A DNA stretch of 64,000 bases from a bacterium. GTDB taxonomy: Bacteria; Patescibacteriota; Minisyncoccia; Phycocordibacterales; UBA9973. The position numbers were made by a program, and so were the translations under genes. Of this stretch, positions 5,259 through 63,385 are shown one piece after another (position 1 is the first letter of the stretch; every line of letters starts with the position of its first letter). The notes below the pieces were generated by a model, which made no database searches, was not told where the DNA came from, and saw nothing but the letters and a program-made list of their open reading frames with translations. Location of the stretch: NCBI GenBank assembly GCA_037130655.1, contig JBAXSP010000004.1, positions 337-64,336 of the forward strand, given 5' to 3'.

Positions 5259-5263
5259 TATAC

Positions 5264-10544: not shown

Positions 10545-10913
10545 TTATCTGCTTACATTAAATCTTTTTGGTGCAATTGACCATGAAGGGACAAATGCGC
10601 CTGTTTCCGTGTTGTAACATGTATTGTAATCAATACTGTATCTACCTAAAATTTGTTGTCCTGCCCGAAGTGTTTTACTTGATTCAGAAACAAAAAATGG
10701 TAAGATTATAAATTTTGAACCGATCGGAGCAATGGTCATTGGTCCGTATTGAGCACCGCACGCAACCTGACTTTCAGCAGTGTTATTGAGTTGTCGAATT
10801 TTCCCACCAAAATTAAACGATGGACCGATAGCAAATGTATTTGTAGCAAAAGAAAATCCGAGCGCAACAAATACACTCAAAAATAATAACGAACGAATTT
10901 TAGAGTGACTCAT
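10545..10913 (-). CDS. Small secreted hypothetical protein
   Basis: 122 aa with a signal peptide (LLFLSVFVALGFSFATNTFA). Its start abuts the ksgA stop. Confidence 0.45.
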   Translation of the reverse strand: MSHSKIRSLLFLSVFVALGFSFATNTFAIGPSFNFGGKIRQLNNTAESQVACGAQYGPMTIAPIGSKFIILPFFVSESSKTLRAGQQILGRYSIDYNTCYNTETGAFVPSWSIAPKRFNVSR

Positions 10914-19221: not shown

Positions 19222-19322
19222 ATAATGACCAATTGCCAATGACTAGTGACTAAAAATCGTATGAAGACTTCGTCTTCATACGATTTTTTAATTGGTCATT
19301 AGTCATTAGACACTAGTCATTG
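19221..19322. repeat. Heptamer-array/terminator composite element, copy 3 (between convergent genes)
   Basis: taatgaccaattgccaatgactagtgacta / aaaatcgtatgaagacttcgtcttcatacgatttt / aattggtcattagtcattagacactagtcatt. Confidence 0.75.
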
Positions 19323-20857: not shown

Positions 20858-20876
20858 AAATAAAGCATAGCAAAAG

Positions 20877-20977
20877 TAATGACCAATTACTAATGACCAA
20901 TGACCAATGACCAATAATTCGAAAAACACGAAGCCAAAGGCTTCGTGTTTTTATTAGTCATTAGTCACTAGTCATTA
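20877..20977. repeat. Heptamer-array/terminator composite element, copy 4
   Basis: taatgaccaattactaatgaccaatgaccaatgaccaata / gaaaaacacgaagccaaaggcttcgtgttttt / attagtcattagtcactagtcatt. Confidence 0.75.
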
Positions 20978-20981
20978 TCTT

Positions 20982-21344
20982 CTATTCGTTAATGTGTTCC
21001 TTACAAGTAGGAGCAGCAGGATTTGCCTCAATTCTGTCTGCTTCAATCTCTTTGCCACACACACGACAGATACCGAATGTGTTTGATTCAAGATTTTCAA
21101 GTGCAGTTTCTACTGACTTTAATCGTGCAGAGAGTGCACTAACGGTAGACCCTCGTTCCTCAAAATCTTCAATACGATCCGCCAAATCATTAAAATCTGC
21201 CTCTGGTCCAGCGTCCTGGTTTTCAGGAACAACTTCCCACATACCAGTTGTCGCATTAAATGATGCGATATCCGAAAGTTCACTTTGTAACTGCTCTTTT
21301 TCTTTAAGCAACAATTCGTGTTGCTCAAGGTGTTGTTCTTTCAT
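20982..21344 (-). CDS. DksA/TraR-family C4-type zinc-finger protein
   Basis: 120 aa. Coiled-coil N-terminus and C-terminal CRVCGKEIEADRIEANPAAPTC four-Cys finger. Confidence 0.75.
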   Translation of the reverse strand: MKEQHLEQHELLLKEKEQLQSELSDIASFNATTGMWEVVPENQDAGPEADFNDLADRIEDFEERGSTVSALSARLKSVETALENLESNTFGICRVCGKEIEADRIEANPAAPTCKEHINE

Positions 21345-22321: not shown

Positions 22322-22361
22322 AAATATATTATAACAAATAATAATAATTTAATTGTATTAA

Positions 22362-22468
22362 AATGACTAATTACTAGTGACCAATGACCAGTATTTTGAA
22401 AACAAAAGAGGCGAAACAGAATGTTTTGCCTCTTTATTAGTCATTAGTCACTAGTCATTGGACATTGC
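22362..22468. repeat. Heptamer-array/terminator composite element, copy 5
   Basis: aatgactaattactagtgaccaatgaccagt / aaaagaggcgaaacagaatgttttgcctcttt / attagtcattagtcactagtcattggacatt. Confidence 0.75.
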
Positions 22469-22980
22469 TATCTGTATCCCATCAAATATTTTTTTGGATT
22501 ATCAGACAAATCAGTGAAGTCATCTACGACTTCGCGTAATTTTCCAGAAGTTGCTTTACCAAATGAAATAACTTCTACTTGTGTTCCGTAGGTATTTTGC
22601 AAATACTCTACCATCGGTATGAAGTCTCCATCTCCTGCCACAAGCACCACCGCATCAAGACGTGGTGCCATTTTCATTGCATCAACAGCAAGTCCGACAT
22701 CCCAATCACCCTTTTTGGCTCCGCCGGCAAATACTTGCAGGTCTTTTGTTTTTGTTTCAATACCAAGTTTTGTCAGTGCTTCAAAAAAGTTTTTCTCATC
22801 ACCTGCTTCACTGGTAATCACATATGCGATTGCACGCACCAGCTTTCGCCCCGCAATTGCGTCTTTGACCACTGCACCAAAATTAACTTTTCGTTTGTAC
22901 AAATTTTTTGCACTATGATACAAATTTTGTGCATCGATAAATACACCGACACGCTGTTCTTTATGTTTAATAATTGCCAT
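22468..22980 (-). CDS. NYN-domain (LabA/DUF88-like) protein
   Basis: VGVFIDAQNLYHSAKN...VVLVAGDGDFIPMVEYLQ matches the NYN/LabA nuclease fold. The start was moved to MAIIKHK at 22980. Confidence 0.65.
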   Translation of the reverse strand: MAIIKHKEQRVGVFIDAQNLYHSAKNLYKRKVNFGAVVKDAIAGRKLVRAIAYVITSEAGDEKNFFEALTKLGIETKTKDLQVFAGGAKKGDWDVGLAVDAMKMAPRLDAVVLVAGDGDFIPMVEYLQNTYGTQVEVISFGKATSGKLREVVDDFTDLSDNPKKYLMGYR

Positions 22981-35339: not shown

Positions 35340-35535
35340 ATTTTTATATGCTAAGAAAACACCGATTCTATATACCGGCGGACATCAGAAATAATATGTC
35401 TTAAGAAATATACTGCTTTGAGATACATAATTTGAGATTGGAATAAACGGCATATCGGTCAATAAGGAATTTCGGAAATTTCAGAAAGGATGTCTTTTTA
35501 GACTTAATTAAGAGTAACAAAATAAATATAACAGA

Positions 35536-35660
35536 ATAATGACCAATGTTCAATGACCAGTGACAAATAATTCGAATCAAAAGAGCGAAGCCGTAGGCTT
35601 CGCTCTTTATTATTTGGTGATTTTAATTAGTCATTGGTCACTAGTCATTAGACATTACTT
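35536..35660. repeat. Heptamer-array/terminator composite element, copy 6 (abuts the clpP stop codon)
   Basis: ataatgaccaatgttcaatgaccagtgacaaat / aaagagcgaagccgtaggcttcgctcttt / ttaattagtcattggtcactagtcattagacatt. Confidence 0.75.
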
Positions 35661-36239
35661 CTTCTTGTTTCCCATTACATCATCAATCAATCCGTATTTT
35701 TTTGATTCATCAGCACTCATCCAGTAATCACGATCACTGTCTTTTTCAATTTGTGCGTATGTCTTGCCGGTATTTTTTGCCAAGATTTTGTACAGATTTT
35801 CTTTGAGCTTGAGAATATGCTTTGCAGTAATTTCTACATCAGACGCTTGTCCTTCGATGCCAGTTAGTGGTTGGTGGATCATCACTTCAGAATTCGGTAA
35901 TGCAAAACGCTTACCTTTTGCACCAGCAGAGAGAATTATAGCCCCCATACTTGCCGCCATACCAATACAGATAGTAGAAACATCACATTTGATATGATTC
36001 ATTGTATCTAAAATCGCAAGACCTGATTGGATACTTCCTCCTGGAGAGTTGATGTAGAGAGAAATATCTTTCTTTGAATCAGAATGTTCCAAGAAAAGCA
36101 GTTGAGCGATAATAATATTTGCTACCTGGTCATCAATCGGACCACCGAGGAAAATAATACGTTCGTTCAAAAGGCGAGAGTAGATGTCATACGCTCGTTC
36201 GCCATTCATTGTTTTTTCGATAACTGTTGGGATTAACAT
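35655..36239 (-). CDS. clpP: ATP-dependent Clp protease proteolytic subunit
   Basis: [24 protein letters not shown]...[18 protein letters not shown]...[11 protein letters not shown]...MIHQP is the catalytic Ser-His core. Confidence 0.95.
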
Positions 36240-37430: not shown

Positions 37431-37470
37431 AGGCAGAGCATATCGTTTTCTTGCTTAAAAAGCAAGAAAA

Positions 37471-37594
37471 TAATGACTAATTACCAATGACCGATGACTA
37501 ATAATTTCGAACTAAAAAAAGCAAAACATTTCATGTTTCGCTTTTTTGGTTAATGTTGTTTTACTGGTCATTAGTCATTGGACACTAGTCATTG
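37471..37594. repeat. Heptamer-array/terminator composite element, copy 7
   Basis: taatgactaattaccaatgaccgatgactaataa / aaaaaagcaaaacatttcatgtttcgctttttt / ctggtcattagtcattggacactagtcattg. Confidence 0.75.
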
Positions 37595-37801
37595 TTCTAA
37601 TGTCTCACTATCTGTCGAAGAGGCAACAGAATCAAGTGTTGCAGTGTTTTCTTTGACCTCAAGATTGATTTGATCTGATACAGGATCTGAGGCGAGTGGT
37701 TTTTTATTTACCTTATTACTTATATACGAAAGAGAAACACCCCCTATAATTATAAGGAGTATTAAAATAACTAGTTTTTTTCCATTATTTGTCATTTGCA
37801 A
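37589..37801 (-). CDS. Small membrane-anchored hypothetical protein
   Basis: 70 aa with TM KLVILILLIIIGGVSLSYI. Confidence 0.35.
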   Translation of the reverse strand: MQMTNNGKKLVILILLIIIGGVSLSYISNKVNKKPLASDPVSDQINLEVKENTATLDSVASSTDSETLEQ

Positions 37802-42236: not shown

Positions 42237-43334
42237 ATGAAATTCGAAGCCTCAATAGAAAAAATAAAAGAAGCGATTGTAAACACTGATCGAATTGCGG
42301 GCAAGAATTTATCATTACCAGTTCTTGGAAGTATCTTAATTATCGCATCAGATAAAAAGCTCAAATTGCGTTCTACAAACCTTAGTATCGGCATAGAGGT
42401 AGATGTACCCGCAAAAGTTGAAAAAGATGGCGTAGTGGCAGTACGTGCCGAAATACTGGCAGGTTTCTTCTCTAATCTAGTCGGTGGAGGAATGGTTTCT
42501 TTTGAACAAGTTGAAAACACTATTGTTCTTAGTACAAAACAAGTCACTTCTCGTATCAAAACAATTCCACACGAAGATTTTCCAACGATTCCAGTGATTG
42601 ATGGTGAAGGAAATAAGATTAATGCTCAAAAATTCAACGAAGGATTACGTGCAGTGTATTATTCAGCAGCTGTCTCTGATATCAAGCCTGAAATCGCAAG
42701 TATTTATGTGTATAAAGATGGTGAAAAGTTGGTATTCGTTGCAACAGACTCATTCCGTCTTTCTGAAAAGAAGATTCAGCAAAGTGTTGAAAATTTTGAA
42801 TCAATGTTGATTCCATGGAAAAATGTTGTTGAAATAATGCGGTTATTGGACAGTGTACAAGGAGATTTTGTTTTGACACACACAAAGACGCAGATTGCTA
42901 TCACTGACAAAGAACAAGGATTATACCTGACTTCTCGGGTGATCGACGGAAATTTCCCAGATTATCGACTTATTTTTCCAAAAGAAGTATTGATCGAAGT
43001 GAATATTTTGAAACAAGAATTTGTGCAGTCATTGAAATTGGCAACAATTTTTTCTGATAAATTCAATCAGATCACATTGAATATCAATGCGGATACAAAC
43101 ACTTGTTCTGTTGCTTCAAAAAACAACGAAACTGGTGAGCAAGATATTGTGGTTCCATGTAAAGTAACTGGCGGAAGTATCACCGCGAGTTTCAACTACA
43201 AACACTTTATGGATTGCTTTTCTTCAGTTGGTGGTGACACGGTCAAACTATCGTTTACTCAACCACAAAAACCAGTGCTGGTGAGCGGGACAGATAATAG
43301 TTTTACTTATTTGATAATGCCACTCAACCGCTAA
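42237..43334 (+). CDS. dnaN: DNA polymerase III beta sliding clamp
   Basis: 365 aa immediately downstream of dnaA/oriC, with the three-domain architecture. Typical N-terminal MKFEASIEKIKEAI... Confidence 0.9.
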   Translation: MKFEASIEKIKEAIVNTDRIAGKNLSLPVLGSILIIASDKKLKLRSTNLSIGIEVDVPAKVEKDGVVAVRAEILAGFFSNLVGGGMVSFEQVENTIVLSTKQVTSRIKTIPHEDFPTIPVIDGEGNKINAQKFNEGLRAVYYSAAVSDIKPEIASIYVYKDGEKLVFVATDSFRLSEKKIQQSVENFESMLIPWKNVVEIMRLLDSVQGDFVLTHTKTQIAITDKEQGLYLTSRVIDGNFPDYRLIFPKEVLIEVNILKQEFVQSLKLATIFSDKFNQITLNINADTNTCSVASKNNETGEQDIVVPCKVTGGSITASFNYKHFMDCFSSVGGDTVKLSFTQPQKPVLVSGTDNSFTYLIMPLNR

Positions 43335-43335
43335 T

Positions 43336-43593
43336 ATGGCCGAGCGAATGACGTCGTATATCGAGCAATTACTCGGTAAACTACAACAAAAAGAAAACGT
43401 TAAGAAAAAAATCGCCGAAATAATATTGTCTGTCACTAAGGTTCCAGTTGAACCGAAAAATATCAGCGCAAAAAATGGTGTCTTGTTCGTCAAAGAAAGC
43501 GGTATGAGAAAACAAGAGATTGTGATGAATAAGCAGAAGATTATTGAAGGAATACAAAAGGAAGTTGGTTCGCTTTTTCTTGATATAAAATAA
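43336..43593 (+). CDS. Small hypothetical protein downstream of dnaN (possibly DUF721-like)
   Basis: 85 aa. NGVLFVKESGMRKQEIVMNKQKIIEGIQKEVG is reminiscent of the conserved DUF721 segment. The assignment is weak. Confidence 0.3.
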   Translation: MAERMTSYIEQLLGKLQQKENVKKKIAEIILSVTKVPVEPKNISAKNGVLFVKESGMRKQEIVMNKQKIIEGIQKEVGSLFLDIK

Positions 43594-43603
43594 AACTCTT
43601 CTC

Positions 43604-43697
43604 AGTTGTAATTTTTTAAGAACACAGATATTTTTCTGGTGAAAAATTCCTTTGCTCGCCTACCCGGCTGCGCAAGTTTCTTAAAAAATTACAACTC
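43604..43697. mobile_element. MITE-like element, TTTTTCACCAGAAAAA-core family (copy B)
   Basis: 19-bp TIR agttgtaattttttaagaa / ttcttaaaaaattacaact. The core (rc) is gcgcagccgggtaggcgagcaaaggaaTTTTTCACCAGAAAAAta. Confidence 0.55.
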
Positions 43698-44131
43698 TAA
43701 AATATTTTGAAAAAATAAAAACTTCCGAATATCGGAAGTTTTTATTATAGAAAAAAGCTCGAATCTCCAAACAATCCTTGTGTTAATAAAAAAACAAGTA
43801 GTCAGATTGCAAAGGATAGCCCCAGCAGACGGTAAACCGTAACCAAGACGTCCTCTTTAAAATAACTTGAGCGTAAGCCGATTGCTTAGAGATTTGAGCC
43901 TTCTTTTGATATACTAGAAAAAATAGTATATACCATATTTTTAACCTGAAAACAGTTTAACATATTATACTTTTTTTGTCAACTACCTTGTTATAAAATC
44001 GTTATATATCAAATAAATGTAAGGATTTTCAGATGTAGATGAAATTCGATGAAAAAATGAGTATTCGAGCGAGATGTATAAATTATACATTGAGTGAGAA
44101 ACGGAATTTTTGAAGAAGAAGTTCGCTACAT

Positions 44132-45127
44132 ATGGAAATTCTAGATAGCATGCAAAAAGAACAGCACACAGACGGAAGACTCGACCAAACACTTCGCCCA
44201 AATACGTGGGATGAATATATTGGACAAGAACACATCAAAGAAAATGTGCGAATTTTGCTTGAAGCTGCAAAAGAACGTGAACACCATGCAGAGCATTTAC
44301 TTTTTTATGGGCCACCAGGACTCGGAAAAACAACACTCGCTCATTTGATTGCGAAACATACCGGTAGAAATATTCGTTCAACATCAGGGCCAGCGATTGA
44401 AAAAGTTGGTGACCTTGCATCGATTCTTACAAACCTAACAGCAGGAGATATTTTGTTTATTGATGAGATTCATCGGTTGAATAAAATGATTGAAGAAGTT
44501 TTGTATCCGGCAATGGAGTCTGGGGTGCTTGATATTATTATCGGAAAAGGGCCATCTGCTCGAACAATCCAACTTGAATTACCACCATTTACCTTGATTG
44601 CTGCAACGACTCGTGTGGCATCACTTTCTTCTCCGCTCCGTTCACGTTTTTCCGGTGGAACATTTCGATTGGAATTTTATACGAATGAAGAATTGAAAAA
44701 AATTATTGCTCGTTCGGCGAAGTTGCTTGGTATTGAGTTGTCTGATACTGCGCTAAATGAAATTGCGATTCGTAGTCGCAGTACTCCGAGAACTGCCAAT
44801 CATTTTCTCAAGCGTGCACGAGATTTTGCTCAAGTACACAAAAAAGAATTGGATGACAAAACTGTCCGTGAAGCATTGGCATTGCTCGGTATTGATGAAC
44901 TAGGTTTGACTCAAACAGATCGAAAAATATTGGAAGTAATGATTGAAAAATTCAATGGTGGGCCAGTTGGTTTGAACACAATCTCTGCTGCAACAGGAGA
45001 GGAAGAAGCAACAGTCGAAGAAGTCATCGAGCCGTACCTATTACAACTTGGTTTGATTGAACGGACACCAAGAGGAAGAACTGTGACTAAAAAAGCATAT
45101 ACCCATCTTGGTTTTGATTTGAAATAA
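44132..45127 (+). CDS. ruvB: Holliday junction branch-migration helicase RuvB
   Basis: LRPNTWDEYIGQEH...LLFYGPPGLGKTTLA...FIDEIHR plus the C-terminal winged-helix. Confidence 0.95.
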   Translation: MEILDSMQKEQHTDGRLDQTLRPNTWDEYIGQEHIKENVRILLEAAKEREHHAEHLLFYGPPGLGKTTLAHLIAKHTGRNIRSTSGPAIEKVGDLASILTNLTAGDILFIDEIHRLNKMIEEVLYPAMESGVLDIIIGKGPSARTIQLELPPFTLIAATTRVASLSSPLRSRFSGGTFRLEFYTNEELKKIIARSAKLLGIELSDTALNEIAIRSRSTPRTANHFLKRARDFAQVHKKELDDKTVREALALLGIDELGLTQTDRKILEVMIEKFNGGPVGLNTISAATGEEEATVEEVIEPYLLQLGLIERTPRGRTVTKKAYTHLGFDLK

Positions 45128-45219
45128 TTAAAATATGAAAAAATAAAAAGCGGAATATTCCGCTTTTTATTTTATTAAGGTCTATATTCTAATTACCGAC
45201 ATACTGATATACTTTCCAT

Positions 45220-45699
45220 ATGATTATTCTCGCTATTGATCCTGGTTTTGAACGATTGGGAATTGCAGTGATTGAAAAAACCACCGGACAAAAAGAAACA
45301 TTGGTTTATTCTGAGTGTTTTAAAACATCGGCAAAAATTCCACACCATGAAAGACTTGCACTAATTCAAACAAAATTTTTGGACATTATTCATATATACA
45401 AACCTGAGTGCTTGGCTATTGAAACATTACTTTTTTCAAACAACACAACAACTGCAATGCCGGTAGCTGAGGTTCGTGGTGTGTTGCTCTCGAATGCATC
45501 ATTGGAAGGACTCAAAATATTTGAATACAATCCAAATACAATCAAAGTAGCAGTAACGGGTTACGGGAAGTCTGACAAAGGGCAAGTTGCTCATATGGTA
45601 ACGAGACTTATTGATACGAAAAATAAAAAAATGATAGACGACGAACTTGATGCAATAGCTATTGGACTGACCTTTTTTGCTATCGAGAAAACAAACTAG
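45220..45699 (+). CDS. ruvC: Holliday junction resolvase RuvC
   Basis: MIILAIDPGFERLGIAV with the conserved catalytic Asp/Glu pattern. 159 aa. Confidence 0.85.
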   Translation: MIILAIDPGFERLGIAVIEKTTGQKETLVYSECFKTSAKIPHHERLALIQTKFLDIIHIYKPECLAIETLLFSNNTTTAMPVAEVRGVLLSNASLEGLKIFEYNPNTIKVAVTGYGKSDKGQVAHMVTRLIDTKNKKMIDDELDAIAIGLTFFAIEKTN

Positions 45700-45785
45700 T
45701 TTCTAATTAACAAAAACCCTTGCATCATTCTGTGGTTTTGGTATAAACGATAAATAATACTTTTAATAGATAATTTTTACGTGTA

Positions 45786-46025
45786 ATGACATACAACGAC
45801 GATACAGATAATCTTTATTGGGAAGATGACTTTGATGGTTCAACAAAGGGGCTTCATGATGAAAACGATGACGATCCATACACGGGTCATTTTGGTTTTA
45901 GTGTAAAAGATGGTGATGATGATGCTGATGTAGAAACAGCTCTTCCGTTGGAAGATGACGAACCGCTTATTGATGAAGACCTTGCTGGTCTTGCAGGAGA
46001 AAAAGAAGAAGAGGAAGCAGAGTAA
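45786..46025 (+). CDS. Small highly acidic hypothetical protein
   Basis: 79 aa with about 40% Asp/Glu. Confidence 0.35.
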   Translation: MTYNDDTDNLYWEDDFDGSTKGLHDENDDDPYTGHFGFSVKDGDDDADVETALPLEDDEPLIDEDLAGLAGEKEEEEAE

Positions 46026-46124
46026 TGTCTAATGACTAGTTACTAATGATCAATAATAAAACAACGAAGCCTATGGCTTCGTTGTTTTATGTTCGAAATA
46101 CTAGTCACTACTCATTAGTCATTA
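46023..46124. repeat. Heptamer-array/terminator composite element, copy 8
   Basis: taatgtctaatgactagttactaatgatcaataa / aaaacaacgaagcctatggcttcgttgtttt / atactagtcactactcattagtcatt. Confidence 0.7.
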
Positions 46125-46126
46125 TT

Positions 46127-48643
46127 TTAGTTTACATTAAACTGAATACTTGCTTCACCGCGGTTGTATACCGAGTCAACACCAACAACACGCAAGGTGT
46201 TTTCACTACCAACAGAAGATATTGCTGATGGGGTAAATGTGTAACTTGTGCCATTTGAAGAACCGATTAATATATTGTTGATATATACATCTATTTTTTT
46301 CAATGGATATACACCAGTAGATGAAACAGAAATGGTTACTGAATCACTTGCACCAACACTTACTCCATCGGTCGGAGTGTTAATTGTTATTTTGGGTTTT
46401 GTTGCCTCAGTGTGTACGTCATCATAACTTGTTGGTTTTGAACTTGCCGATACAGCAGGGTAACTATTTCTATTTTTGTTCCACCAATCTTGCACACTTG
46501 TTTCCCAGTGTGAGAATAGTCCATCACTACCTGGATCAAATGGTGCTGGGCCTGTTGGGTCATTTCTGTTTACCCAGTACAAAATGTCATGCACATTAGT
46601 AATCACTCGTTCCTGTTTTGTTTCTTCAGGGGTGAGATCTGTTGCAAGTTTGCCAGATATTTTGTCGATATAGAAACTTTCTCCACCAAGCCATGCACCA
46701 TGCAACACTGGTTTTTCAGGATAGGGAATTTGAGCTGTTGGGAAATTTTCTGGTTGTGTTTTTGAAAGCGCATAACGCATAAATTCATTCCATGTTGGAC
46801 CTGCAACTGCGGCACCACCTTTTTTCATTGGTTTATTGTCGTTGTTTCCCGCCCAGACACCAACGGCGATACTTGGAGTGTAGCCAACAAGCCATGCGTC
46901 TTTGTTGTTGTTGGTGGTACCTGTTTTTGCGGCAACTTGGCGTCCTTCTATGTAGAGTGCTGAATGTGCTCCAAATGTTGGAATACGTGCTTCGTTATCA
47001 GAGAGTACATTTGAAATCATGGCAGTCACATTCGGATCCATTGCTGGTGTTTCTTCTTGTTGGAATGATTCCAATTCTTTTCCTTCTTTGTCTTTGACTG
47101 AAAGAATAGGAGTAATTTTTTCTTTGACACCGTTGTTTGCAAATACACTGTACGCACTAGTCATATCAAGGAGTGACACTTCACCACCTCCGAGCACCAA
47201 AGAGAGTCCGTATTGGTTTTTGTCTCCCGTTAGGTTGACCCCGAGAGCTCGTGCGGTACGCATTGCTTCATCAACGCCAACCAAGTACAGTGTTTTCACT
47301 GCAGGGACGTTACGTGACTCTTGAAGGGCATCTCTCATACTGATAGGGCCTTTGAATTTGTTGTCGAAGTTGTCTGGGTTGTAACAATCTGCTTTTGTGC
47401 TTCCTGGGTTCGGTACGCTATATGCATTACAACGAGTAGAGAATTCTGTTCGAACATCAAACAGTGTTGTGTCTGGTGTATATCCTTTTGCAAATGCGGC
47501 CGCATAAACAAATGGTTTGAATGATGAACCTGGTTGTCTGCGAGCTGTTGCGATATTGAAGGCACCATCGATTTGTTTATCAAAATAATCTCTCGAACCA
47601 ACCATTGCAAGGATTTGTCCGTTTTTGGGATCAATAGCAACTAGTGCTTGGTTTGTTGCACCCCAATCTTTTTCTAGTTGTGGTGCGGTCTTTTTTGCTA
47701 TTTCTTCAGCTTTTTGTTGGAGATCGTAATCAAGTGTGGTGATGACATTTAATCCACCGGCTTCAAGCACACCGTCACCATATTTTTCTTGCAGGTAATT
47801 TTGAATATAAAAAACAAAGTGTGGTGCTTTGATGCCAGTTGATTCTTGTGGTTTGAATGTCACTACTTCGGCCTTTGCTTTGTCGAACTCTTCTTGAGTA
47901 ATTACCTTGGTTGCAAGCATTTTGTTCAAGACGGCGTTTTTACGGTCTTCAAGTAATGCGCGGTTTTTTCCATAGGGAGAATAAAGTGTCGGGCCTTTTG
48001 GAATAGCGGCAAGGTATGCAGATTCAGCAACAGTTAGATCAATTGGATTTTTGCCGAAGAACATCCGAGATGCTTCTTTGATTCCATACACTGTTCCGCC
48101 GTACGGAGATTCATTTAAATATAACGCCAAGATTTCATCTTTGGTCATTGTCTTTTCGATTTTCAAAGCCAAAACTACTTCTTTGATTTTTCGGGCAATA
48201 CTTTTGTCTTGAGTAAGCAGGGTGTTTTTGACTACTTGTTGGGTAATCGTTGAACCTCCTTGTTTTTTTGCACCACCATGAAGCAGGTTCACCAATACTG
48301 CGCGTGCAATAGAAGTCAAACGAATTCCATTGTGAGAATAGAATTGATCGTCTTCGATTGCGACTGTTGCTTTTTTGATGTTTTCTCCCATTTCAGAAAA
48401 TGGAATCTCAGTACGCTTGGTGTTTTTGTGAAAATCATACAAAACAATTTCACCTGTTCTATCATAGATCTTTGTTGAATTGATGACTTGTCGAGCGTCC
48501 ACATTTGAGAAATCTGGAACACCGACAAAGCCGACCCAGGCCACGATTGCTCCAACGAAGAACAATGCTGTCCCCATACCAAGGAGTACAAAATTGCGAA
48601 TAATATGCCACGTATTTTTATTAAATTTCTTTTTTATTTCCAT
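46127..48643 (-). CDS. Class A penicillin-binding protein (transglycosylase + transpeptidase, PBP1A-type)
   Basis: N-terminal TM, GT51 motifs (EDDQFYSHNGI, GGSTITQQ), transpeptidase motifs (SSFKP, KTGTT), and a C-terminal extension. Confidence 0.9.
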   Translation of the reverse strand: MEIKKKFNKNTWHIIRNFVLLGMGTALFFVGAIVAWVGFVGVPDFSNVDARQVINSTKIYDRTGEIVLYDFHKNTKRTEIPFSEMGENIKKATVAIEDDQFYSHNGIRLTSIARAVLVNLLHGGAKKQGGSTITQQVVKNTLLTQDKSIARKIKEVVLALKIEKTMTKDEILALYLNESPYGGTVYGIKEASRMFFGKNPIDLTVAESAYLAAIPKGPTLYSPYGKNRALLEDRKNAVLNKMLATKVITQEEFDKAKAEVVTFKPQESTGIKAPHFVFYIQNYLQEKYGDGVLEAGGLNVITTLDYDLQQKAEEIAKKTAPQLEKDWGATNQALVAIDPKNGQILAMVGSRDYFDKQIDGAFNIATARRQPGSSFKPFVYAAAFAKGYTPDTTLFDVRTEFSTRCNAYSVPNPGSTKADCYNPDNFDNKFKGPISMRDALQESRNVPAVKTLYLVGVDEAMRTARALGVNLTGDKNQYGLSLVLGGGEVSLLDMTSAYSVFANNGVKEKITPILSVKDKEGKELESFQQEETPAMDPNVTAMISNVLSDNEARIPTFGAHSALYIEGRQVAAKTGTTNNNKDAWLVGYTPSIAVGVWAGNNDNKPMKKGGAAVAGPTWNEFMRYALSKTQPENFPTAQIPYPEKPVLHGAWLGGESFYIDKISGKLATDLTPEETKQERVITNVHDILYWVNRNDPTGPAPFDPGSDGLFSHWETSVQDWWNKNRNSYPAVSASSKPTSYDDVHTEATKPKITINTPTDGVSVGASDSVTISVSSTGVYPLKKIDVYINNILIGSSNGTSYTFTPSAISSVGSENTLRVVGVDSVYNRGEASIQFNVN

Positions 48644-48684
48644 ATATAAATAGTATCACGATAGCAGGAAAAATTTTAGAAAAT

Positions 48685-49890
48685 ATGATACAGTATGCCT
48701 ATATGGTAGATACTGATATACAAAAAATTAACACCCTTTTGGGGCGGGGAACAGAAGATGTTTTTGTGAAAGATGATTTGTTGAAAAAACTTTCATCAGG
48801 CAAACAACTTCGAATCAAGTTCGGTATTGATCCAACTGGACCAAAGATTCATATTGGGCGAGCGGCAGTGCTTCGTAAATTAAAAGCGTTTCAAGATTTG
48901 GGGCATCAAATTGTTTTGATTATCGGAGATTTTACCGCTCAAATTGGCGATGCTTCTGATAAGAGTGAAAAACGACCAATGCTTTCCAAGGAACAAGTGA
49001 ATGAAAATTTCAAGGCATACAAAGAACAAATTGGAAAAATTTTGGATATTTCAAAAGTAGAATTTCGATACAATAGTGATTGGCTTGCAACACTTAGCTT
49101 TGCTCAAATTTGTGAACTTGCTGAAGTTTTCACGGTGCAACAAATGATTTCTCGAAGAAATTTCAAGGAACGTATTGAAAATGGGAATGAAATTTCATTA
49201 CGAGAATTTATGTACCCACTGATGCAAGGATATGATTCTGTTATGGTTGAGGCTGATGTTGAGATTGGTGGATTCGATCAATTGTTCAACTTGAAAGCAG
49301 GAAGAATAATGCAAAAACATTTTGGAAAAGAAGAACAAAATGTGTTGACGGTGCAAATGCTTGAGGGAACAGATGGACGAAAAATGTCGACCAGTTGGGG
49401 AAATGTGATTACGATTACCGATGAACCGAACGATATGTTTGGTCACATTATGTCTGTCAAAGATGAACTAATTCCAAAATACTTTTTACTTGCGACTGAT
49501 GTTGTAACTTCAGAAATTGAAATAATTACCAAAGCAATTACTGATGGAGCAAATCCAATGATATACAAAAAGCAGTTGGCAAAAGAAATTGTTGCTCTTT
49601 ATCACGGTGCGGACGCTGCGCAGAATGCGTACGAACATTTTGAAAACACCTTCTCAAAAGGAGAAATTCCAGAACTTGCAGATATGGAAGTAGCAGGAGA
49701 AACACAACTGGTAGAAATTTGTTTGCATCACGGGCTCGTGAGTTCAAAAGGAGAATTTGCTCGACTGATTGAAAGTAAATCTATTGAACATATGGATAGT
49801 GAAAAGATTGTTGATGACAAAAATGCAATCGCACAAAGCGGCACGTATCGAATAGGGAAGAAGCGATTTATCAAAATAAAAGTCATATAA
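48685..49890 (+). CDS. tyrS: Tyrosine--tRNA ligase
   Basis: HIGH-type motif (GIDPTGPKIHIGRAAV), KMSTS (a KMSKS variant), and a C-terminal S4-like domain. Confidence 0.85.
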   Translation: MIQYAYMVDTDIQKINTLLGRGTEDVFVKDDLLKKLSSGKQLRIKFGIDPTGPKIHIGRAAVLRKLKAFQDLGHQIVLIIGDFTAQIGDASDKSEKRPMLSKEQVNENFKAYKEQIGKILDISKVEFRYNSDWLATLSFAQICELAEVFTVQQMISRRNFKERIENGNEISLREFMYPLMQGYDSVMVEADVEIGGFDQLFNLKAGRIMQKHFGKEEQNVLTVQMLEGTDGRKMSTSWGNVITITDEPNDMFGHIMSVKDELIPKYFLLATDVVTSEIEIITKAITDGANPMIYKKQLAKEIVALYHGADAAQNAYEHFENTFSKGEIPELADMEVAGETQLVEICLHHGLVSSKGEFARLIESKSIEHMDSEKIVDDKNAIAQSGTYRIGKKRFIKIKVI

Positions 49891-50000
49891 TAGTGACCAG
49901 TTACTAATGACCGATGACCAATAACAAAAAAGTGACAACCAAGAGTTGTCACTTTTTTTATTCGAAACTATTGGTCACTAGTCATTGGTAATTAGTCATT
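49891..50000. repeat. Heptamer-array/terminator composite element, copy 9 (between the convergent tyrS and PilB-like genes)
   Basis: tagtgaccagttactaatgaccgatgaccaata / aaaaaagtgacaaccaagagttgtcacttttttt / ctattggtcactagtcattggtaattagtcatt. Confidence 0.75.
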
Positions 50001-50006
50001 ATCTCT

Positions 50007-51710
50007 CTAATCTTCATCGAAATCTACAACCTCCACTGCTTCCTCATATGTTGTCACACCATTCAAGATTTTCACCACTGCGTCTTCTTTCATATCAAGA
50101 ATGTGTTGTGTTTCAGATGCTTTTTTGATTTCTCGTTCACTTGGGTTTTTGTTTACGATATCTTCAATTGATTGGTCTGTGAGTATTGCTTCGAACACAC
50201 CGATTCGTCCTTTGTATCCAGTTCCGCTACATTTTTCACAACCAACCGCTTGTTTGACTTTCATATCCATATCAGCTGATACATTATATGAAGCCATATC
50301 TTTTCCTTCTGCAATCGCCTGTGTGATAATCGCGCTGAATATGTTCTTTTCATTTTCGTTTGCGTCACGATCTGTCGCACAGTATTTACAAACTTTTCTG
50401 ATCAACCGTTGTGCTACTGAAATAGTGAGAGCAGAAGTGAGGATTTTTGGATTGATACCAAGGTCAATCAAGCGGGGAATAACACCTGCGGCATTGTTGG
50501 TGTGGAGTGTTGAGAACACCAAGTGACCAGTAAGTGCTGCGTTGATTGCAATTGTTGCTGTGTCTTTGTCTCGGATTTCTCCCACCATGATTACGTCAGG
50601 GTCTTGTCTTAGTGCTGCACGAAGTCCTTCAGGGAAACCGTAGCCTTTGTCGATTTCAGTTTGAGTTTGAGTGATACCTGCGAGGTGATATTCAATCGGG
50701 TCTTCAATAGTAAGAATTTTTAACTCAGGATCATAGATGCGACGAAGGAATGAATAGAGGGTGGTTGTTTTTCCAGATCCTGTTGGTCCGGTGATCAACA
50801 TCAATCCATTTGGTTTTTTGATTTCGTGATCCAGAATCTTAAAGAGTTTTGGTTCGATTCCCAGGTCTTCGAATTTTACTTTCGTTGCTTTTGGGTTGAG
50901 TAGACGCATAACAATTCCTTCGCCGTATGCAGATGGAATGATTGATGTACGAATACCAATTTCATCTCCGCTAATAAAAATACTAAAACGTCCATCCTGT
51001 GCTTGGTCTGTTTGAGTAAGTTTCAATCCTGAGATCAATTTGATACGAGAGTCGATCATTCTGAACTTTGCTTCATCAAAGAATGCTACATCTTGCAACA
51101 CTCCGTCGAGACGATACCGTAAACGAATTCGTTCATGCTCTGGTTCGATGTGAATATCAGACGCATCAATCGAAATTGCTCCAGCGAGAATAATTTCAAG
51201 CATGCGAGAAGTTTTCTTTTGAGAGCCGTCAGAAATAATTTGTTCAATGATTTTTCTAATATCATCAATTGTTTTAATCTGTGTCCCGAGTGCAAGGAGA
51301 GTGTCTCCGGTGATGTCGATACCACCTTCTCGAGAAACAGTGGTGTTTGAAAGTTCGCGATAGCGTTCCCAAACTTTTGTGAGACTGGCGATTGATGCCA
51401 TATAGATATGAGGAACATATCCTTTTTTGATGAGGTTTGCTGTCAGTAATGCAACATCGGTGTGAGCAGGAGAGTGTAGTGCGATGTGCAGATTGTTCCC
51501 GGCTAGTTTGAACGGAGCAACTTCCATATCATGTGCGTCTTTTTCGTCGAAGGCTCGCAATGCTTCGTTTTCAATAACCACTCCAGCAAGGTTGATATAT
51601 GGAATATTGTATTTTTCGGTCGCCAACATTTCTACCAAACCCTCTTCTTCTTGTTTTCGTAGTTCGTCAACGCGTTTGTTTTGTGATTTGTCATCAAAAG
51701 AAATACTCAT
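50007..51710 (-). CDS. Type IV pilus assembly / type II secretion ATPase (PilB/GspE family)
   Basis: Walker A LITGPTGSGKTTTL, Asp and His boxes, and a C-terminal tetra-Cys motif (CKYCATD...CEKCSGTGYKGR). Confidence 0.9.
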   Translation of the reverse strand: MSISFDDKSQNKRVDELRKQEEEGLVEMLATEKYNIPYINLAGVVIENEALRAFDEKDAHDMEVAPFKLAGNNLHIALHSPAHTDVALLTANLIKKGYVPHIYMASIASLTKVWERYRELSNTTVSREGGIDITGDTLLALGTQIKTIDDIRKIIEQIISDGSQKKTSRMLEIILAGAISIDASDIHIEPEHERIRLRYRLDGVLQDVAFFDEAKFRMIDSRIKLISGLKLTQTDQAQDGRFSIFISGDEIGIRTSIIPSAYGEGIVMRLLNPKATKVKFEDLGIEPKLFKILDHEIKKPNGLMLITGPTGSGKTTTLYSFLRRIYDPELKILTIEDPIEYHLAGITQTQTEIDKGYGFPEGLRAALRQDPDVIMVGEIRDKDTATIAINAALTGHLVFSTLHTNNAAGVIPRLIDLGINPKILTSALTISVAQRLIRKVCKYCATDRDANENEKNIFSAIITQAIAEGKDMASYNVSADMDMKVKQAVGCEKCSGTGYKGRIGVFEAILTDQSIEDIVNKNPSEREIKKASETQHILDMKEDAVVKILNGVTTYEEAVEVVDFDED

Positions 51711-51734
51711 GGTCTTTTTAGTTTAACACAAAAA

Positions 51735-51772
51735 AAGCAATGACCAATGACTAGTGACTAATGACTAATAAA
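51735..51772. repeat. Solo heptamer array (half element) upstream of the PilB-like gene
   Basis: gcaatgaccaatgactagtgactaatgactaataaaa with no partner arm or GC hairpin. It is followed by an AT-rich stretch and MITE copy C. Confidence 0.55.
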
Positions 51773-51862
51773 ATTTAAATTATAAAAAATAAATAATTAT
51801 TTTTTATAAAAATATATAAACTATTATTTAAAATAATTGCAATTTTTTTTCATGGAATGAAG

Positions 51863-51955
51863 GTGTGTTTTTCAGTAGACTCTGCGCAGACTGACGAGTC
51901 GAGCAAAGTAATTTTTCACCAGAAAAATATACGTGTCTACTGAAAAACAGCACCT
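51863..51955. mobile_element. MITE-like element, TTTTTCACCAGAAAAA-core family (copy C), flanked by an 8-bp direct duplication
   Basis: TIR gtgtgtttttcagtagac / gtctactgaaaaacagcac. Core gcgcagactgacgagtcgagcaaagtaaTTTTTCACCAGAAAAAta. Flanking direct repeats gaatgaag at 51855-51862 and 51956-51963. Confidence 0.6.
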
Positions 51956-52022
51956 GAATGAAGACTTGACAAACATATTGTATTGTGATACAATCTTGTT
52001 AGAAATCAAATAATATACAAAA

Positions 52023-53342
52023 TTGAAACAGTACATTTTAAACATCAAAAAAGTCCTTTTTACGGCAATCATTGTTTTGGTTGTGTCAGCAAAAGGCTAC
52101 ACAAAAAATTCTAACGATACTACTTGGCATCATTTGCCATATAGTAAAAATCCAACCACTCAAAAAACCGGAGCAGAAATTGCGGAGGGGATTGAGAATG
52201 GAACACTTGAACTGAACATGAGTATTGATGAGTTTGTAATTCAAAAAACAAACATTATCAACATTTATTGCAAACGCGACAAATGGAAAGATGCTCAAGG
52301 AAATCTGGTGGCCCCATACAAAGCCTCGAGGCAATTCATTGCTTCAATGTATCGGAACGCAAAACTGCAAACCGCAAGTTGGCAGTCCGACCAAGCATTG
52401 GTTTTTAGATTAACAACCGGAAGTATTGGTTCTGGGAAAAAAGAGAAAGTAGTCATAAAATATTTTGACTACTGGAACAGAAATCCTTACCAAAACGAAG
52501 GAATGTTTACAATTAGCCCAAGTGCTTTGTCCGATGTTGTTGGTAATTATCCAGATATTAATTTGGGTAGCAACCAGTGTTTGAATGATATTTTTATCAA
52601 ACAAATACAACAGCAACCAATCGCTCAGACTCCTGCTCCTTGCACAACATGTAATCAGCAGGTACAGCAACAGGTGTACCAGCAACCACAACAACAGCCA
52701 TGCAACAATTGCCAACAAGTGCAATGTCAGGGTGGATGTAACACGTGGAGCGGTATTCCTGTTAGAGTTCCGGCGATCTACACAGATCAGTACACAAGTC
52801 CGTGGTGGAACTTCAATGGCTATCCTCCAAACGTTAACTGTAACTACGGTTACGGAAACATGGGGTATGCACAACAAGGTTGTGGGTATTGCGGTGTTGT
52901 TGGTTGTAATGGTGGTTGTTATGGAAGAGGGAGAAATCCTTATCCGTATATGATTGCAGGACAATTAATCAGTGCTGGAACAATGCTCGGTTTGGCTTAT
53001 TTTAGCCAACCGCAACAAACCATTTTGGTTCAAAACTACAATACAACGACTTCAAATGGTGGAACGTCTCAGACGTGGACACCGACCAATAACGGGAGCG
53101 GTATTGTTGTTACCCCTGGGGGGAGCACATCAGCACTTAATTGGGGCACTGGAAACAGTAACAGTGGTGGAACAAACCAAACAAACACAGGTCTTAACTG
53201 GGGAACCGGAAACAGTTTCGGTGGTGGAACAAACCAAACAAACACGAACTTTAACACAGGAACTGGAAACAGTTTTAATGGAGGGGGTTCGTCAAATTGG
53301 GGAGGAACATCTTATGTTATTCCTGCTCAATGGTTGCGTTAA
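52023..53342 (+). CDS. Secreted Cys- and Gln/Asn/Gly-rich hypothetical protein with internal tandem repeats
   Basis: 439 aa with a signal peptide. A QQ/C-rich middle region, and the C-terminus has ~19-aa tandem repeats (NWGTGNS.GGTNQTNT). Confidence 0.5.
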   Translation: MKQYILNIKKVLFTAIIVLVVSAKGYTKNSNDTTWHHLPYSKNPTTQKTGAEIAEGIENGTLELNMSIDEFVIQKTNIINIYCKRDKWKDAQGNLVAPYKASRQFIASMYRNAKLQTASWQSDQALVFRLTTGSIGSGKKEKVVIKYFDYWNRNPYQNEGMFTISPSALSDVVGNYPDINLGSNQCLNDIFIKQIQQQPIAQTPAPCTTCNQQVQQQVYQQPQQQPCNNCQQVQCQGGCNTWSGIPVRVPAIYTDQYTSPWWNFNGYPPNVNCNYGYGNMGYAQQGCGYCGVVGCNGGCYGRGRNPYPYMIAGQLISAGTMLGLAYFSQPQQTILVQNYNTTTSNGGTSQTWTPTNNGSGIVVTPGGSTSALNWGTGNSNSGGTNQTNTGLNWGTGNSFGGGTNQTNTNFNTGTGNSFNGGGSSNWGGTSYVIPAQWLR

Positions 53343-62192: not shown

Positions 62193-62460
62193 ACAGATAA
62201 ATTATACAGGAATCGATCACAGATTACTAAAGCTATTTGTTTCGGTGGGAATCCCTCCTTACAGGGGCAGTAAACTTACAGTTTCTGTACACCTTTTGGA
62301 TATTTTTTCATAGGAATCGATCACAAGTATTTTTCACCAGAAAAATCTCGCGACCCCGCCTCGCCTATTTTTCGGGTGAAAAATTAGGGCTCCGGCTTTC
62401 GATTCCTACACGCAAAGCAAAATTGTTTGCTTCGCTCGAGGGGACACAAAAATAAAAACT
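62193..62460. repeat. Repeat-rich region next to tRNA-Lys: a 14-bp direct repeat pair around an 86-bp insert, a double TTTTTCACCAGAAAAA / TTTTTCGGGTGAAAAA palindrome (MITE-family copy D), and an inverted, interrupted copy of the tRNA-Lys 3' end
   Basis: aggaatcgatcaca at 62204-62217 and 62304-62317. 62323-62385 tttttcaccagaaaaatctcgcgaccccgcctcgcctatttttcgggtgaaaaa. 62397-62445 ggctttcgattcctac[acgcaaagcaaaattgtttgcttcgct]cgaggggac matches the tRNA-Lys T-loop-to-acceptor sequence on the opposite strand. Confidence 0.5.
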
Positions 62461-62487
62461 GCACAAATTGTGCAGTTTTTATTTTTG

Positions 62488-62560
62488 TCCCCTCGGTAGG
62501 AATCGAACCTACGACCATCTCCTTAAAAGGGAGCTGCTCTACCGACTGAGCTACGAGGGG
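62488..62560 (-). tRNA. tRNA-Lys (anticodon TTT)
   Basis: Perfect acceptor CCCCTCG/CGAGGGG, D-arm GCTCAGTCGGTAGAGC, anticodon loop CTTTTAA, T-arm TAGGTTCGATTCCTA. An unusual C at position 1. Confidence 0.7.
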
Positions 62561-62611: not shown

Positions 62612-63115
62612 ATGAACAAAAGGTCAATAACCCAAAATGAAAAGAAGTTAATTTTAGTACTCGACAATATTCGCAGTGAACACAATACCGGTTCGCTTTT
62701 TCGTACTGCCGACGGAGCAGGGGTGAGCAAGGTTTTTCTTGTAGGCACAACACCAAAACCAATCGATCGTTTTGGGCGGCCAGTTGGCACAATTGCAAAA
62801 ACTGCTCTCGGTGCAGAGAAAACTATTCCATATGAATATTATGCAACCACCGAAGAAACAATTACTGTATTAAAAAAAGAGGGAGTACATATATATAGTC
62901 TTGAGCAAACAGCAAGTAGTGTTTCTTTGTTTGATGTTGAACCACAATTTCCGTGTGCACTTATCGTTGGTAATGAAGTTGATGGGGTAAGCAAAGAGTT
63001 TGTTGATGCAAGTGATACAGTGCTTGAAATTCCAATGAACGGTGAAAAAGAAAGTTTGAATGTGAGTGTAGCAGGCGGAATAGGATTATTTTTTCTTTTG
63101 CAAAAGAAAAAATAA
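62612..63115 (+). CDS. SpoU/TrmH-family RNA 2'-O-methyltransferase
   Basis: LVLDNIRSEHNTGSLFRTADGAGV, LIVGNEVDGVS, EIPMNGEKESLNVSVAGGIGLF are the SPOUT motifs. Confidence 0.8.
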   Translation: MNKRSITQNEKKLILVLDNIRSEHNTGSLFRTADGAGVSKVFLVGTTPKPIDRFGRPVGTIAKTALGAEKTIPYEYYATTEETITVLKKEGVHIYSLEQTASSVSLFDVEPQFPCALIVGNEVDGVSKEFVDASDTVLEIPMNGEKESLNVSVAGGIGLFFLLQKKK

Positions 63116-63127
63116 TCCTATTCCGCA

Positions 63128-63238
63128 AATGACCAGTGTCCCAGTGACTAATGACCAATAAAACTGAACAAAAAAAGAAATCTTTTTGGGATTTCTTTTT
63201 TTAAATATTAGTCACTAGTCATTGGTAATTAGTCATTA
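63128..63238. repeat. Heptamer-array/terminator composite element, copy 13
   Basis: aatgaccagtgtcccagtgactaatgaccaata / aaaaaagaaatctttttgggatttcttttttt / attagtcactagtcattggtaattagtcatt. Confidence 0.75.
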
Positions 63239-63385
63239 CTTCCCATACGCTCTACTTTGTTCGTATGGTGTTGCTGGGGTGAGATATGGCTTATCTTTTT
63301 CTGCGCGAGCTGGTCCACCTGTGGCATACCAAAGAATCCAAAGAGCAACAAGCGATAATAAAATTATTTTTATTTCTGACATAGA

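Follow-up and report, generated by a model that had tools for sequence, protein, structure and literature searches.

A fold-defined family of inserted palindromic elements in Patescibacteria, with a sister class beside tRNA genes

We analyzed a short palindromic repeat in a 64,000-nucleotide stretch of patescibacterial DNA (contig JBAXSP010000004.1, UBA9973 lineage), referred to as a whole as the window. Three copies of the repeat, A, B, and C (Table 1), are members of a large, modular family of inserted, noncoding hairpin elements in the Patescibacteria, or candidate phyla radiation (CPR). Selection preserves a Y-shaped fold on one strand of these elements and not a pair of terminal sequences; the fold itself, its covariation, and its strand asymmetry are shown. 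A fourth copy, D, belongs to a second class, which is linked to tRNA genes. The conserved property is a single-strand fold, and with middling confidence we therefore favor spread or retention of the elements via a folded single-stranded form that is recognized in trans.

Copies in the window and the conserved fold

An initial annotation had described a multicopy repeat of about 95 bases with a common core, and four lines of evidence confirm that A, B, and C are real copies of it: a shared 16-mer, a longer core, folding, and an independent model. A scan of the window found exact matches to the 16-mer TTTTTCACCAGAAAAA at 11486 (+), 43631 (-), 51912 (+), and 62330 (+) and a further match, with one mismatch, at 62368 (-); the chance expectation in the window is ~0.5 matches at up to two mismatches. 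A 30-nt degenerate core pattern has no mismatches in B and C and was reproduced by no shuffle, and the cores of A, B, and C are 76 to 83% identical. Compared with dinucleotide shuffles, each window copy folds with a z score of -5.6 to -7.7. Read by eye, the palindromic unit of A spans 11434-11530, and together with a 5' tag, CUCGAUG, the copy spans 11429-11530. We rejected an extra copy near 23.1 to 23.5 kb, where the 13- to 14-mers in common are coincidences in coding sequence.

A, B, and C adopt one shape, a three-way junction. Its parts are a closing stem of ~20 bp, a small hairpin whose internal loop, G(N)A/GA, is of the tandem G-A type, and an A/U hairpin, UUUUUC-ACCA-GAAAAA, with a bulged A. 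The pairs of the small hairpin are kept while the letters change, from GGC/GCC in A to GCC/GGC in B and GACU/AGUC in C.

The family extends across the Patescibacteria. An exact scan for the 19-mer ATTTTTCACCAGAAAAATA, covering one genome per species, matched more than 116 stretches, and nearly all of those with a title are patescibacterial metagenome-assembled genomes (MAGs). The taxa among the matches listed include Saccharibacteria, Paceibacterota, and Nomura-, Taylor-, Vogel-, and Woesebacteria. About 12 matches in other phyla lack the rest of the core and were dismissed as chance, as was a link to phage, for which the three matches on viral contigs are all without the core.

For this first class of elements (class 1) we built covariance model R1 from six copies in other genomes, with no window sequence and with the structure set by hand. 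Run with filters off over the whole window, R1 recovered A, B, and C at 59.7 to 66.7 bits; the next best match was D, at 17.3 bits on the minus strand, and the opposite strands of A, B, and C scored at most 10 bits. Over 100 sources, R1 gave 99 matches, many without the exact 19-mer and up to 4 of them per 8-kb locus. Copies often number two to four per 8 kb, and the core is present in more than 100 patescibacterial loci. Elements measure ~95 to 105 nt, reaching ~190 nt with outer arms in other genomes, and the small hairpin has variable-length expansions in some copies. Rfam gave no match at A to D with E up to 5, at gathering or permissive thresholds, and on representative loci it matched solely long-hairpin microRNA precursor models, far under threshold. 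Neither Rfam 15 nor the full-text literature yielded a description of the family, which is absence of evidence only; this CPR palindromic repeat family is apparently so far undescribed.

Covariation supports every helix of the fold. The R1 matches gave an alignment of 97 sequences with 29 base pairs, in which 92.8% of the cells are in standard pairs, compared with 65.3% in shuffles and 43 to 57% with slid partners, although the first percentage is somewhat inflated because the alignment was fitted to the model. Compensatory changes, with both sides varying, were found in all 29 pairs, including 11 of the 11 in the closing stem. The covariation score was 0.593, compared with 0.158 in shuffles and at most 0.135 with slid partners; pair types are diverse at every position, and the margin over the controls is large. 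From a plain MAFFT alignment, RNAalifold recovered the A/U hairpin alone.

The mismatches distinguish the two strands. G-U mismatches outnumber A-C mismatches 110 to 45 overall, 18 to 0 in the stem of the A/U hairpin, and 29 to 7 in the stem beneath the G(N)A/GA loop, and the closing stem has 83 purine-purine and 14 pyrimidine-pyrimidine mismatches. Therefore, of the two strands, the structured one is that with ACCA in its loop. One structured strand fits RNA or single-stranded DNA, and does not fit a duplex protein-binding palindrome.

Recombination among copies appears to be frequent, with mosaic copies in some genomes. Among the loci of other genomes compared in this analysis, which carry L numbers, L063 holds two elements (1818-1909 and 4660-4755) that match over ~92 nt, including the inner arms, with the exception of the A/U hairpin. 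That hairpin is UUUUUC-ACCA-GAAAAA in one and UUUCUU-AGCA-AAGAAA in the other, which resembles a module swap between copies.

Insertion sites and genomic context

Comparison of occupied with empty sites, together with in-frame intragenic copies, shows that the family is inserted DNA. Copy A was initially placed inside ksgA, and this is correct: the host open reading frame (ORF) encodes a KsgA/RsmA dimethyltransferase (PF00398) whose frame stays open throughout A, so that the element is read through. The protein has 305 residues, 39 more than its closest relative, P0002 from JGI contig L120, which has 266 and is 90% identical where the two align. Most of the homologues listed have 256 to 300 residues, nearly all of the 118 more distant ones are of ordinary length, and the few with a taxon name come from Minisyncoccia or Paceibacterota. 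The 34 residues that A contributes to KsgA (WSCFF...KKQTIE) fall between its GD and NIPYY motifs, and A is absent from the 90%-identical protein and from the other listed homologues of ordinary length. At the DNA level, A is on the simplest reading a 102-nt in-frame insertion (11429-11530) consisting of the whole palindrome and the CUCGAUG tag.

The sites of other elements are also empty in relatives. The spacer that holds C measures 255 nt here and ~65 nt in L121, where PilB is 70% identical; a model search of the L121 spacer found no element, and the promoter beside the site is kept (TTGACA-17-TATCAT). Within the gene order FtsK, small ORF, RecA, the pre-recA spacer contains an element in L063 (178 nt) and is 32 nt long in L061 and 20 nt in L109, and the FtsK-proximal spacer of these three loci has the opposite pattern of presence. 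The initial interpretation is supported to this extent: the copies are small, noncoding, multicopy insertions that carry no enzyme of their own.

Long ORFs contain 4 of 62 class-1 matches, or about 5% of copies intragenic. We confirmed in-frame insertion in two other genes, within the linker of an M1 (PepN-like) peptidase and within a Dus domain, both in the sense direction. Elements have on average 2.2 stop-free frames out of six, compared with 1.05 in composition-matched shuffles.

Class-1 elements between tandem gene pairs are oriented at random (13 sense and 19 antisense); a further 13 lie in divergent and 5 in convergent spacers, and orientation is mixed among the copies of a locus. Both A and B run antisense to what surrounds them. 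C stands upstream of, and outside, the transcript from a promoter-like site whose -35 box begins 11 nt beyond the end of the element; this strong site is close to the consensus of an extended -10 promoter, with 11 of 12 matches (TTGACA, 17 nt, TG-n-TACAAT), and is the one kept in L121. No promoter-like site was found 5' of A, B, C, or D. The random orientation and the lack of an element promoter argue against a cis-acting mRNA element.

B lies between the ORF downstream of dnaN, which is DciA-like, and ruvB, as the initial annotation stated; it is antisense to both, and, read on its own strand, it has the purine-rich tags UAGAG and UGAGAAGAG at its sides. C lies between a pilB-like gene and a divergent ORF, and the genes around A to D as a whole encode KsgA, the DciA-like protein, RuvB, RuvC, PilB, a ZIP transporter, and a SpoU methylase. 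We clustered the ORFs within 2.5 kb of ~120 loci and found no transposase, reverse transcriptase, integrase, or other recurrent protein, the recurrent families being housekeeping only. No partner insertion sequence (IS) with the same ends was present in the window or among those ORFs. A tblastn search of 0.8 Mb of related loci for a Y1/RAYT enzyme, with an approximate IS608 TnpA query, gave no match but is a weak test, which a single-copy gene elsewhere in the genome would escape. The initial finding that the window encodes no transposase thus holds, also for the surroundings of the ~120 loci.

The mechanism probably depends on the single-stranded fold. The single-stranded form could be a DNA strand exposed in replication or transposition, or a transcript. 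Its folded state would be recognized by a factor encoded elsewhere in the genome, and a single-stranded intermediate would give mobility. Copies survive within genes when they happen to be in frame and stop-free, as in KsgA. D represents a sister class with the same core, located ~50 to 80 nt downstream of a tRNA gene and behind a terminator hairpin, with a closing stem made from an inverted and a direct copy of the 3' end of that tRNA.

Several observations weigh against this explanation. Neither a trans-acting enzyme nor an intermediate was found. The 19-mer is identical across several CPR lineages, albeit in a scan selected for identity, and some copies occupy orthologous sites in more than one MAG; a function of benefit to the host would also account for these two observations. 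IS200/IS605-type single-strand transposons have a strong orientation bias, while our elements are oriented 47 to 28 with respect to local GC skew, a weak bias among loci that are not independent. The fitted alignment inflates the share of paired cells, as noted above, and the perfect 8-bp repeat around C, described below, could be a true target duplication.

The tRNA-linked class and other window features

The second class of elements (class 2) is linked to tRNA genes, as shown by its position and by its closing stems. D had been described as a rearranged relative at 62320-62390; based on its score with model R2, built from twelve class-2 cores of other genomes, and on end-to-end alignments, it is instead a full class-2 member on the minus strand. 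It aligns over its entire length, nearly identically, with copies in three other CPR genomes (L001, L021, and L027). D was the best R2 match in the window, and R2 also matched the cores of C (44.6 bits), A (36.1 bits), and B (31.7 bits); therefore, the two classes share a homologous core. The closing stem of D is GUAGGAAUCGA / UCGAUUCCUA(C). Its G(N)A/GA module bears a second hairpin, U5C-ACCC-GA5 (62368-62383), which replaces the small hairpin, and its long stem ends in UUUUUC-UGGU-GAAAAA (62330-62345), where the loop of the main hairpin is inverted (UGGU).

Class-2 copies were found by eye on the same strand as the adjacent tRNA or 5S rRNA gene in 13 of 13 cases. Model matches with a tRNA within 400 nt agree (10 of 10 on the same strand), usually standing 50 to 80 nt downstream. 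The closing stems match the T-loop, T-stem, and acceptor 3' strand of the adjacent tRNA over 10 to 19 nt (control mean, 5 to 6; maximum, 10). The characteristic order is tRNA, terminator-like perfect hairpin, exact inverted tRNA 3' end, core, and direct tRNA 3' end, and in L038 the inverted copy includes even trailer bases. In the window, the 3' end of tRNA-Lys is copied directly in the 3' arm of D (62311-62320) and in inverted form twice, in the 5' arm of D (62399-62409) and as the acceptor strand at 62437-62444. There are also mirror-image cases, in which a duplicated tRNA 5' fragment lies upstream of the intact tRNA. We cannot explain this architecture with confidence; the candidates are integration at a specific site with restoration of the tRNA, a template switch at the terminator hairpin, and an RNA that mimics a tRNA mini-helix.

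The first alternative to recognition of a folded single strand in trans is that the elements are structured RNAs of a new functional class in CPR bacteria, with a core that binds a conserved protein or ligand. Class 2 would then be expressed next to tRNA and rRNA genes and matured by tRNA-processing enzymes, and class 1 would consist of paralogues or decayed copies. We consider this a minor possibility. Every helix covaries, with G-U and tandem G-A tolerated on one strand only, yet single-stranded DNA with compensatory changes on one strand would give the same signal. The core is conserved to an extreme degree across lineages, but no Rfam family matches. The stems of class 2 mimic the acceptor/T-arm helix of tRNA, one copy even ending in ACCA, and the class shares the strand of its tRNA or 5S gene by eye and by models alike; in every case inspected, however, a terminator-like hairpin separates the tRNA from the element, and no promoter-like site precedes A to D. 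Variable-length expansions of the small hairpin are seen in many real RNAs, whereas perfect stems of 20 to 35 bp and insertion in housekeeping ORFs are unusual for RNA genes. The random orientation of class 1 with respect to flanking genes, with two of four intragenic copies antisense to the host gene, also counts against this proposal.

An unlikely alternative is that the elements are miniature integrative elements, moved by a tyrosine- or HUH-type recombinase acting on the folded site, with class 2 at tRNA genes and class 1 at secondary sites. Like genomic islands, class 2 carries a copied tRNA end, and the tRNA 3' end is repeated directly on its far side over 12 to 19 nt, beyond the control values given above. 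Simple site-specific integration would nevertheless leave unexplained the extra inverted copy mirrored about the terminator. In L101 and, as a tandem array, in L116, the element comes after a 19-nt tRNA 5' fragment and before an intact tRNA, but no integrase is nearby. The preference for fold over sequence recalls integron attC sites; against this, the attC core sites RYYYAAC and GTTRRRY do not occur in the required order by eye, and copies within one locus have mixed orientation.

Additional arrangements were seen at class-2 loci. Tandem units stand upstream of an intact tRNA-Ala in L116 (7640-8000) and L101 (140-420); each joins the 5' 20 nt of tRNA-Ala to a class-2 element and a spacer of ~50 nt, and in L116 two units lie 157 nt apart. 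L103 (1-170) has a tRNA-Ser(UGA) with intact anticodon arm, variable arm, T-arm, and acceptor 3' end and with one or two class-2 cores in the D-loop region; ARAGORN did not call it, and the gene may be disrupted or the tRNA may contain an unusual insertion. The motif AUCCAAAAGGUGUACAG-NNN-CUGUAAG lies beside D (62262-62305, minus strand), beside class-2 elements in L044, L045, and L069, and within a class-1 element of L099, and is possibly another module of the mosaic family. In the window, a 13-nt direct repeat, GTGATCGATTCCT (62208-62220 and 62312-62324), brackets ~91 nt holding the AUCCAAAAGGUGUACAG motif. A perfect 24-bp palindrome, GCGGAATAGGATTATTTTTTCTTT-TGCA-AAAGAAAAAATAATCCTATTCCGC (63075-63126), encodes the last 14 residues and the stop of the SpoU-type methylase. 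Its center resembles the U-rich/A-rich hairpin of the family with a UGCA loop, with weak scores of 19.9 bits for R2 and 12 bits for R1.

Two features of the window are separate from the family. The heptamer repeat TAGTCAY (complement, RTGACTA), with three to five units per block, is an abundant family of its own, whose blocks stand inverted on both sides of terminator-like hairpins in at least 12 intergenic regions (361-408, 439-488, 5221-5270, 19208-19325, 20862-20987, 22346-22470, 35522-35667, 37456-37597, 46021-46127, 49876-50004, 51728-51795, and 63130-63241). At ~40 kb, immediately upstream of dnaA, GC skew changes sign, values of -0.07 to -0.14 giving way to +0.04 to +0.08, and gene orientation switches there too; this is the likely replication origin.

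Table 1. Elements, associated repeats, and neighboring genes in the window
Feature	Class	Positions	Strand	Remarks
Copy A	1	11429-11530	+	102-nt insertion in KsgA/RsmA gene, antisense to gene; R1 core 11442-11521, 59.7 bits
Copy B	1	43604-43697	-	Intergenic; R1 core 43612-43688, 66.7 bits
Copy C	1	51863-51955	+	Divergent spacer; R1 core 51869-51946, 60.7 bits
Direct repeat GAATGAAG, left of C		51855-51862	+	Possible target duplication or 5' purine-rich tag (cf. CGAUGAAGG, CGUCGAAGG elsewhere)
Direct repeat GAATGAAG, right of C		51956-51963	+	At position of family 3' tag GAGAAAG
Copy D	2	62311-62411	-	R2 48.5 bits, E 6e-11
tRNA-Lys(UUU)		62487-62560	-	T-loop, T-stem, and acceptor 3' strand (UUCGAUUCCUAC, CGAGGGGA) copied in D
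Terminator-like perfect hairpin		62454-62480	-	Between tRNA-Lys and D; center of large palindrome (tRNA 3' end and inverted copy)
KsgA/RsmA ORF		10913-11830	-	Host of A
dnaA		40504-41856
dnaN		42237-43334
DciA-like ORF		43336-43593		Neighbor of B
ruvB		44132-45127		Neighbor of B
pilB-like gene		50007-51710	-	Neighbor of C
Promoter-like site		51966-51994		Beside C
ORF		52023-53342		Neighbor of C, divergent from pilB-like gene
SpoU-type methylase gene		62612-63115

Arms, flanks, and known systems

The initial annotation interpreted the repeat as a nonautonomous MITE (miniature inverted-repeat transposable element) mobilized in trans, with conserved terminal inverted repeats (TIRs) of ~19 bp and an 8-bp target-site duplication at one copy. 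The nonautonomous inserted repeat is upheld; conserved TIRs are not, the flanking duplication is not systematic, and the status of the repeat as a MITE with TIRs and target duplications is not shown. The arms are 54 to 64% identical between copies, far below the cores, while the arm pairs are complementary within each copy and every stem pair covaries. The arm consensus GGTnTGTTTTTTCAAAGnnC fits A and C loosely (64% identity) and fails for B (54 to 61%). We rejected the idea that class-1 arms are copied from nearby DNA, as there is no third copy within 4 kb. The same idea was rejected for KsgA, where both arms belong to the 102-nt insertion and the likeness of arm and empty site is noise from lysine codons and A runs.

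The 8-bp repeat GAATGAAG does stand on both sides of C, but it is the only flanking duplication among the three class-1 window copies. For 60 elements with 12-nt flanks, the ends being inferred from folding and not from empty sites, the longest common direct repeat was distributed as in permuted controls, and a shared run of at least 5 nt was seen in 5 of the 60 (4.3 expected). Many members instead have an unpaired, purine-rich tag pair, CGUCGAAG, CGUUGAAG, or CGAUGAAG on the 5' side and GAGAAAG on the 3' side, and complementary outer arms often continue beyond it. The GAATGAAG pair coincides with such tags (5' YGAAG / 3' GAGAAAG), which recur at the same place in other genomes, and may therefore be part of the element. 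C may still have a true duplication, as the sequence upstream of the -35 box in the empty relative is purine rich as well.

We regard a classical MITE, that is, an IS deletion derivative served in trans by a DDE transposase, with conserved TIRs and 8-bp duplications, as quite unlikely. Class-1 elements are small, lack ORFs, occur in multiple copies, and have empty sites in relatives, as a MITE would, and the repeat around C is perfect, yet A and B have no duplication, the 60 elements show no excess, and the repeat falls on family tags. The outer ends of A and C have GGTnTGTTTTT(T)CA in common, and the ends of the IS6 family (GGTTCTGTTGCAAAGTT, with 8-bp duplications) loosely resemble the arms of these two copies, but the ends of B differ. 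Moreover, L017 and L018 combine identical or near-identical cores with unrelated outer arms. No transposase was found in the window or in the 0.8 Mb of related loci, and strand-specific mismatches would be unexpected if the ends were bound as a DNA duplex.

A conserved motif for regulation or protein binding in duplex DNA, which the initial annotation had suggested for the small palindrome of the core, is highly improbable: although the 16-mer is palindromic and highly conserved and C adjoins a promoter, the 16-mer forms a hairpin whose stem covaries on one strand (UA to AU, CG to UA) and whose loop varies (ACCA, AGCA, AACA, UGCA, and UGGU), mismatch types are strand-asymmetric, and one copy lies in frame in a coding region and others between convergent genes. 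Taking the alternatives together, we rank the folded single-stranded form first, functional RNA next, and the miniature integrative element and the classical MITE after them.

A tentative synthesis, possible but not one we would lean on, is that of a CPR-wide, fold-defined element with a near-universal three-way-junction core and two states: one linked to tRNA or 5S genes, with a clamp made of tRNA ends (a tRNA mini-helix mimic), and one dispersed in spacers and, in frame, in housekeeping genes. If it is true, the family would be either a new mobile element with a single-stranded or RNA intermediate that uses tRNA ends and hairpins, by template switching or snap-back copying, or a new, abundant class of CPR small RNA with its own protein partner. 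CPR genomes are ~1 Mb in size and strongly reduced, yet some hold an element every 2 to 4 kb, including inside essential genes. That the fold and not the ends is conserved across such evolutionary distances suggests an unknown machinery of recognition, or an unknown function, in a group that makes up a very large, little-understood share of bacterial diversity. R1 and R2 allow the elements to be annotated and explain odd insertions in CPR proteins (KsgA, Dus, and PepN); the models could also flag tRNA genes missed by standard tools, and the presence or absence of copies could serve as a strain marker in metagenomes. The copying of tRNA ends in class 2 is a concrete, testable puzzle.

Among known structured elements, the patescibacterial group I introns found in tRNA genes (PMC13011429) were set aside, as they are the length of a ribozyme and lie in the anticodon loop, unlike the present elements. 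Hammerhead, K-turn, group II domain 5/6, retron, T-box, SRP, RNase P, and tmRNA were rejected by eye for lack of their defining motifs. Integron attC sites are conserved in structure, with one active strand, a length of 57 to 141 nt, and a variable, sometimes branched top. The CPR element likewise is conserved in structure and has a single structured strand. By contrast, CPR copies have no R''/R' core sites (A to C by eye), cassette arrays, or adjacent integrase, and they are of mixed orientation with housekeeping genes between them. Mobile hairpin elements and coding palindromes of mitochondrial genomes, for example in Nematomorpha, are reported to be long, near-perfect inverted repeats translated in protein-coding genes (PMC6649704). 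They share with our elements the tolerance inside genes, and differ in being organellar and eukaryotic and in having no conserved branched core.

Correia, ERIC, and RUP MITEs have conserved inverted ends and defined duplications (TA for Correia) and are restricted to a genus or family. The CPR elements are like them in size, in copy number, in having no ORFs, in preferring intergenic sites, and in the long pairing of their ends, but their ends covary, their duplications are unsystematic, and their core spans several CPR lineages. When transcribed, such long terminal pairing would make an RNase III substrate (PMC10969869).

REP, REPIN, and BIME sequences are hairpin repeats whose stem bears an unpaired tag, GTAG or CGTC, at one of its ends and which are moved by the Y1 enzyme RAYT (PMC3733652). 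The CPR family resembles them in that the fold is kept, in the absence of target duplication, in its BIME-like mosaic and modular makeup, and in the unpaired CGUCGAAG, CGUUGAAG, or CGUAGG that many copies have just 5' of the stem. Where the REP or REPIN enzyme is known, it is encoded by a single gene elsewhere in the genome. REP-type tags (CGTC-, CGTT-, or GTAG-like) occur in many CPR copies but are weak in those of the window (CUCGAUG, GAAUGAAG, and UAGAG), and their 5' and 3' tags are not complementary to each other, as those of a REPIN doublet would be. REPs are also simple hairpins of 20 to 40 bp, whereas the CPR elements are far larger (95 to 190 nt) and branched.

Rickettsia palindromic elements are noncoding palindromic repeats of ~100 to 150 bp in a reduced genome, often translated in frame within ORFs and with no transposase of their own known (PMC10969869). 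The CPR element differs in belonging to another phylum, in being intragenic in only ~5% of copies, in having a branched core across whole bacterial classes, and in having a tRNA-tied sister class. It likewise sits in frame in genes, in antisense in KsgA and in sense in the M1 peptidase and Dus, a likeness of behavior that is not evidence of homology. Because its fold is conserved and its end sequences are not, the family resembles Rickettsia and REP-type palindromic repeats more than a transposase-driven MITE.

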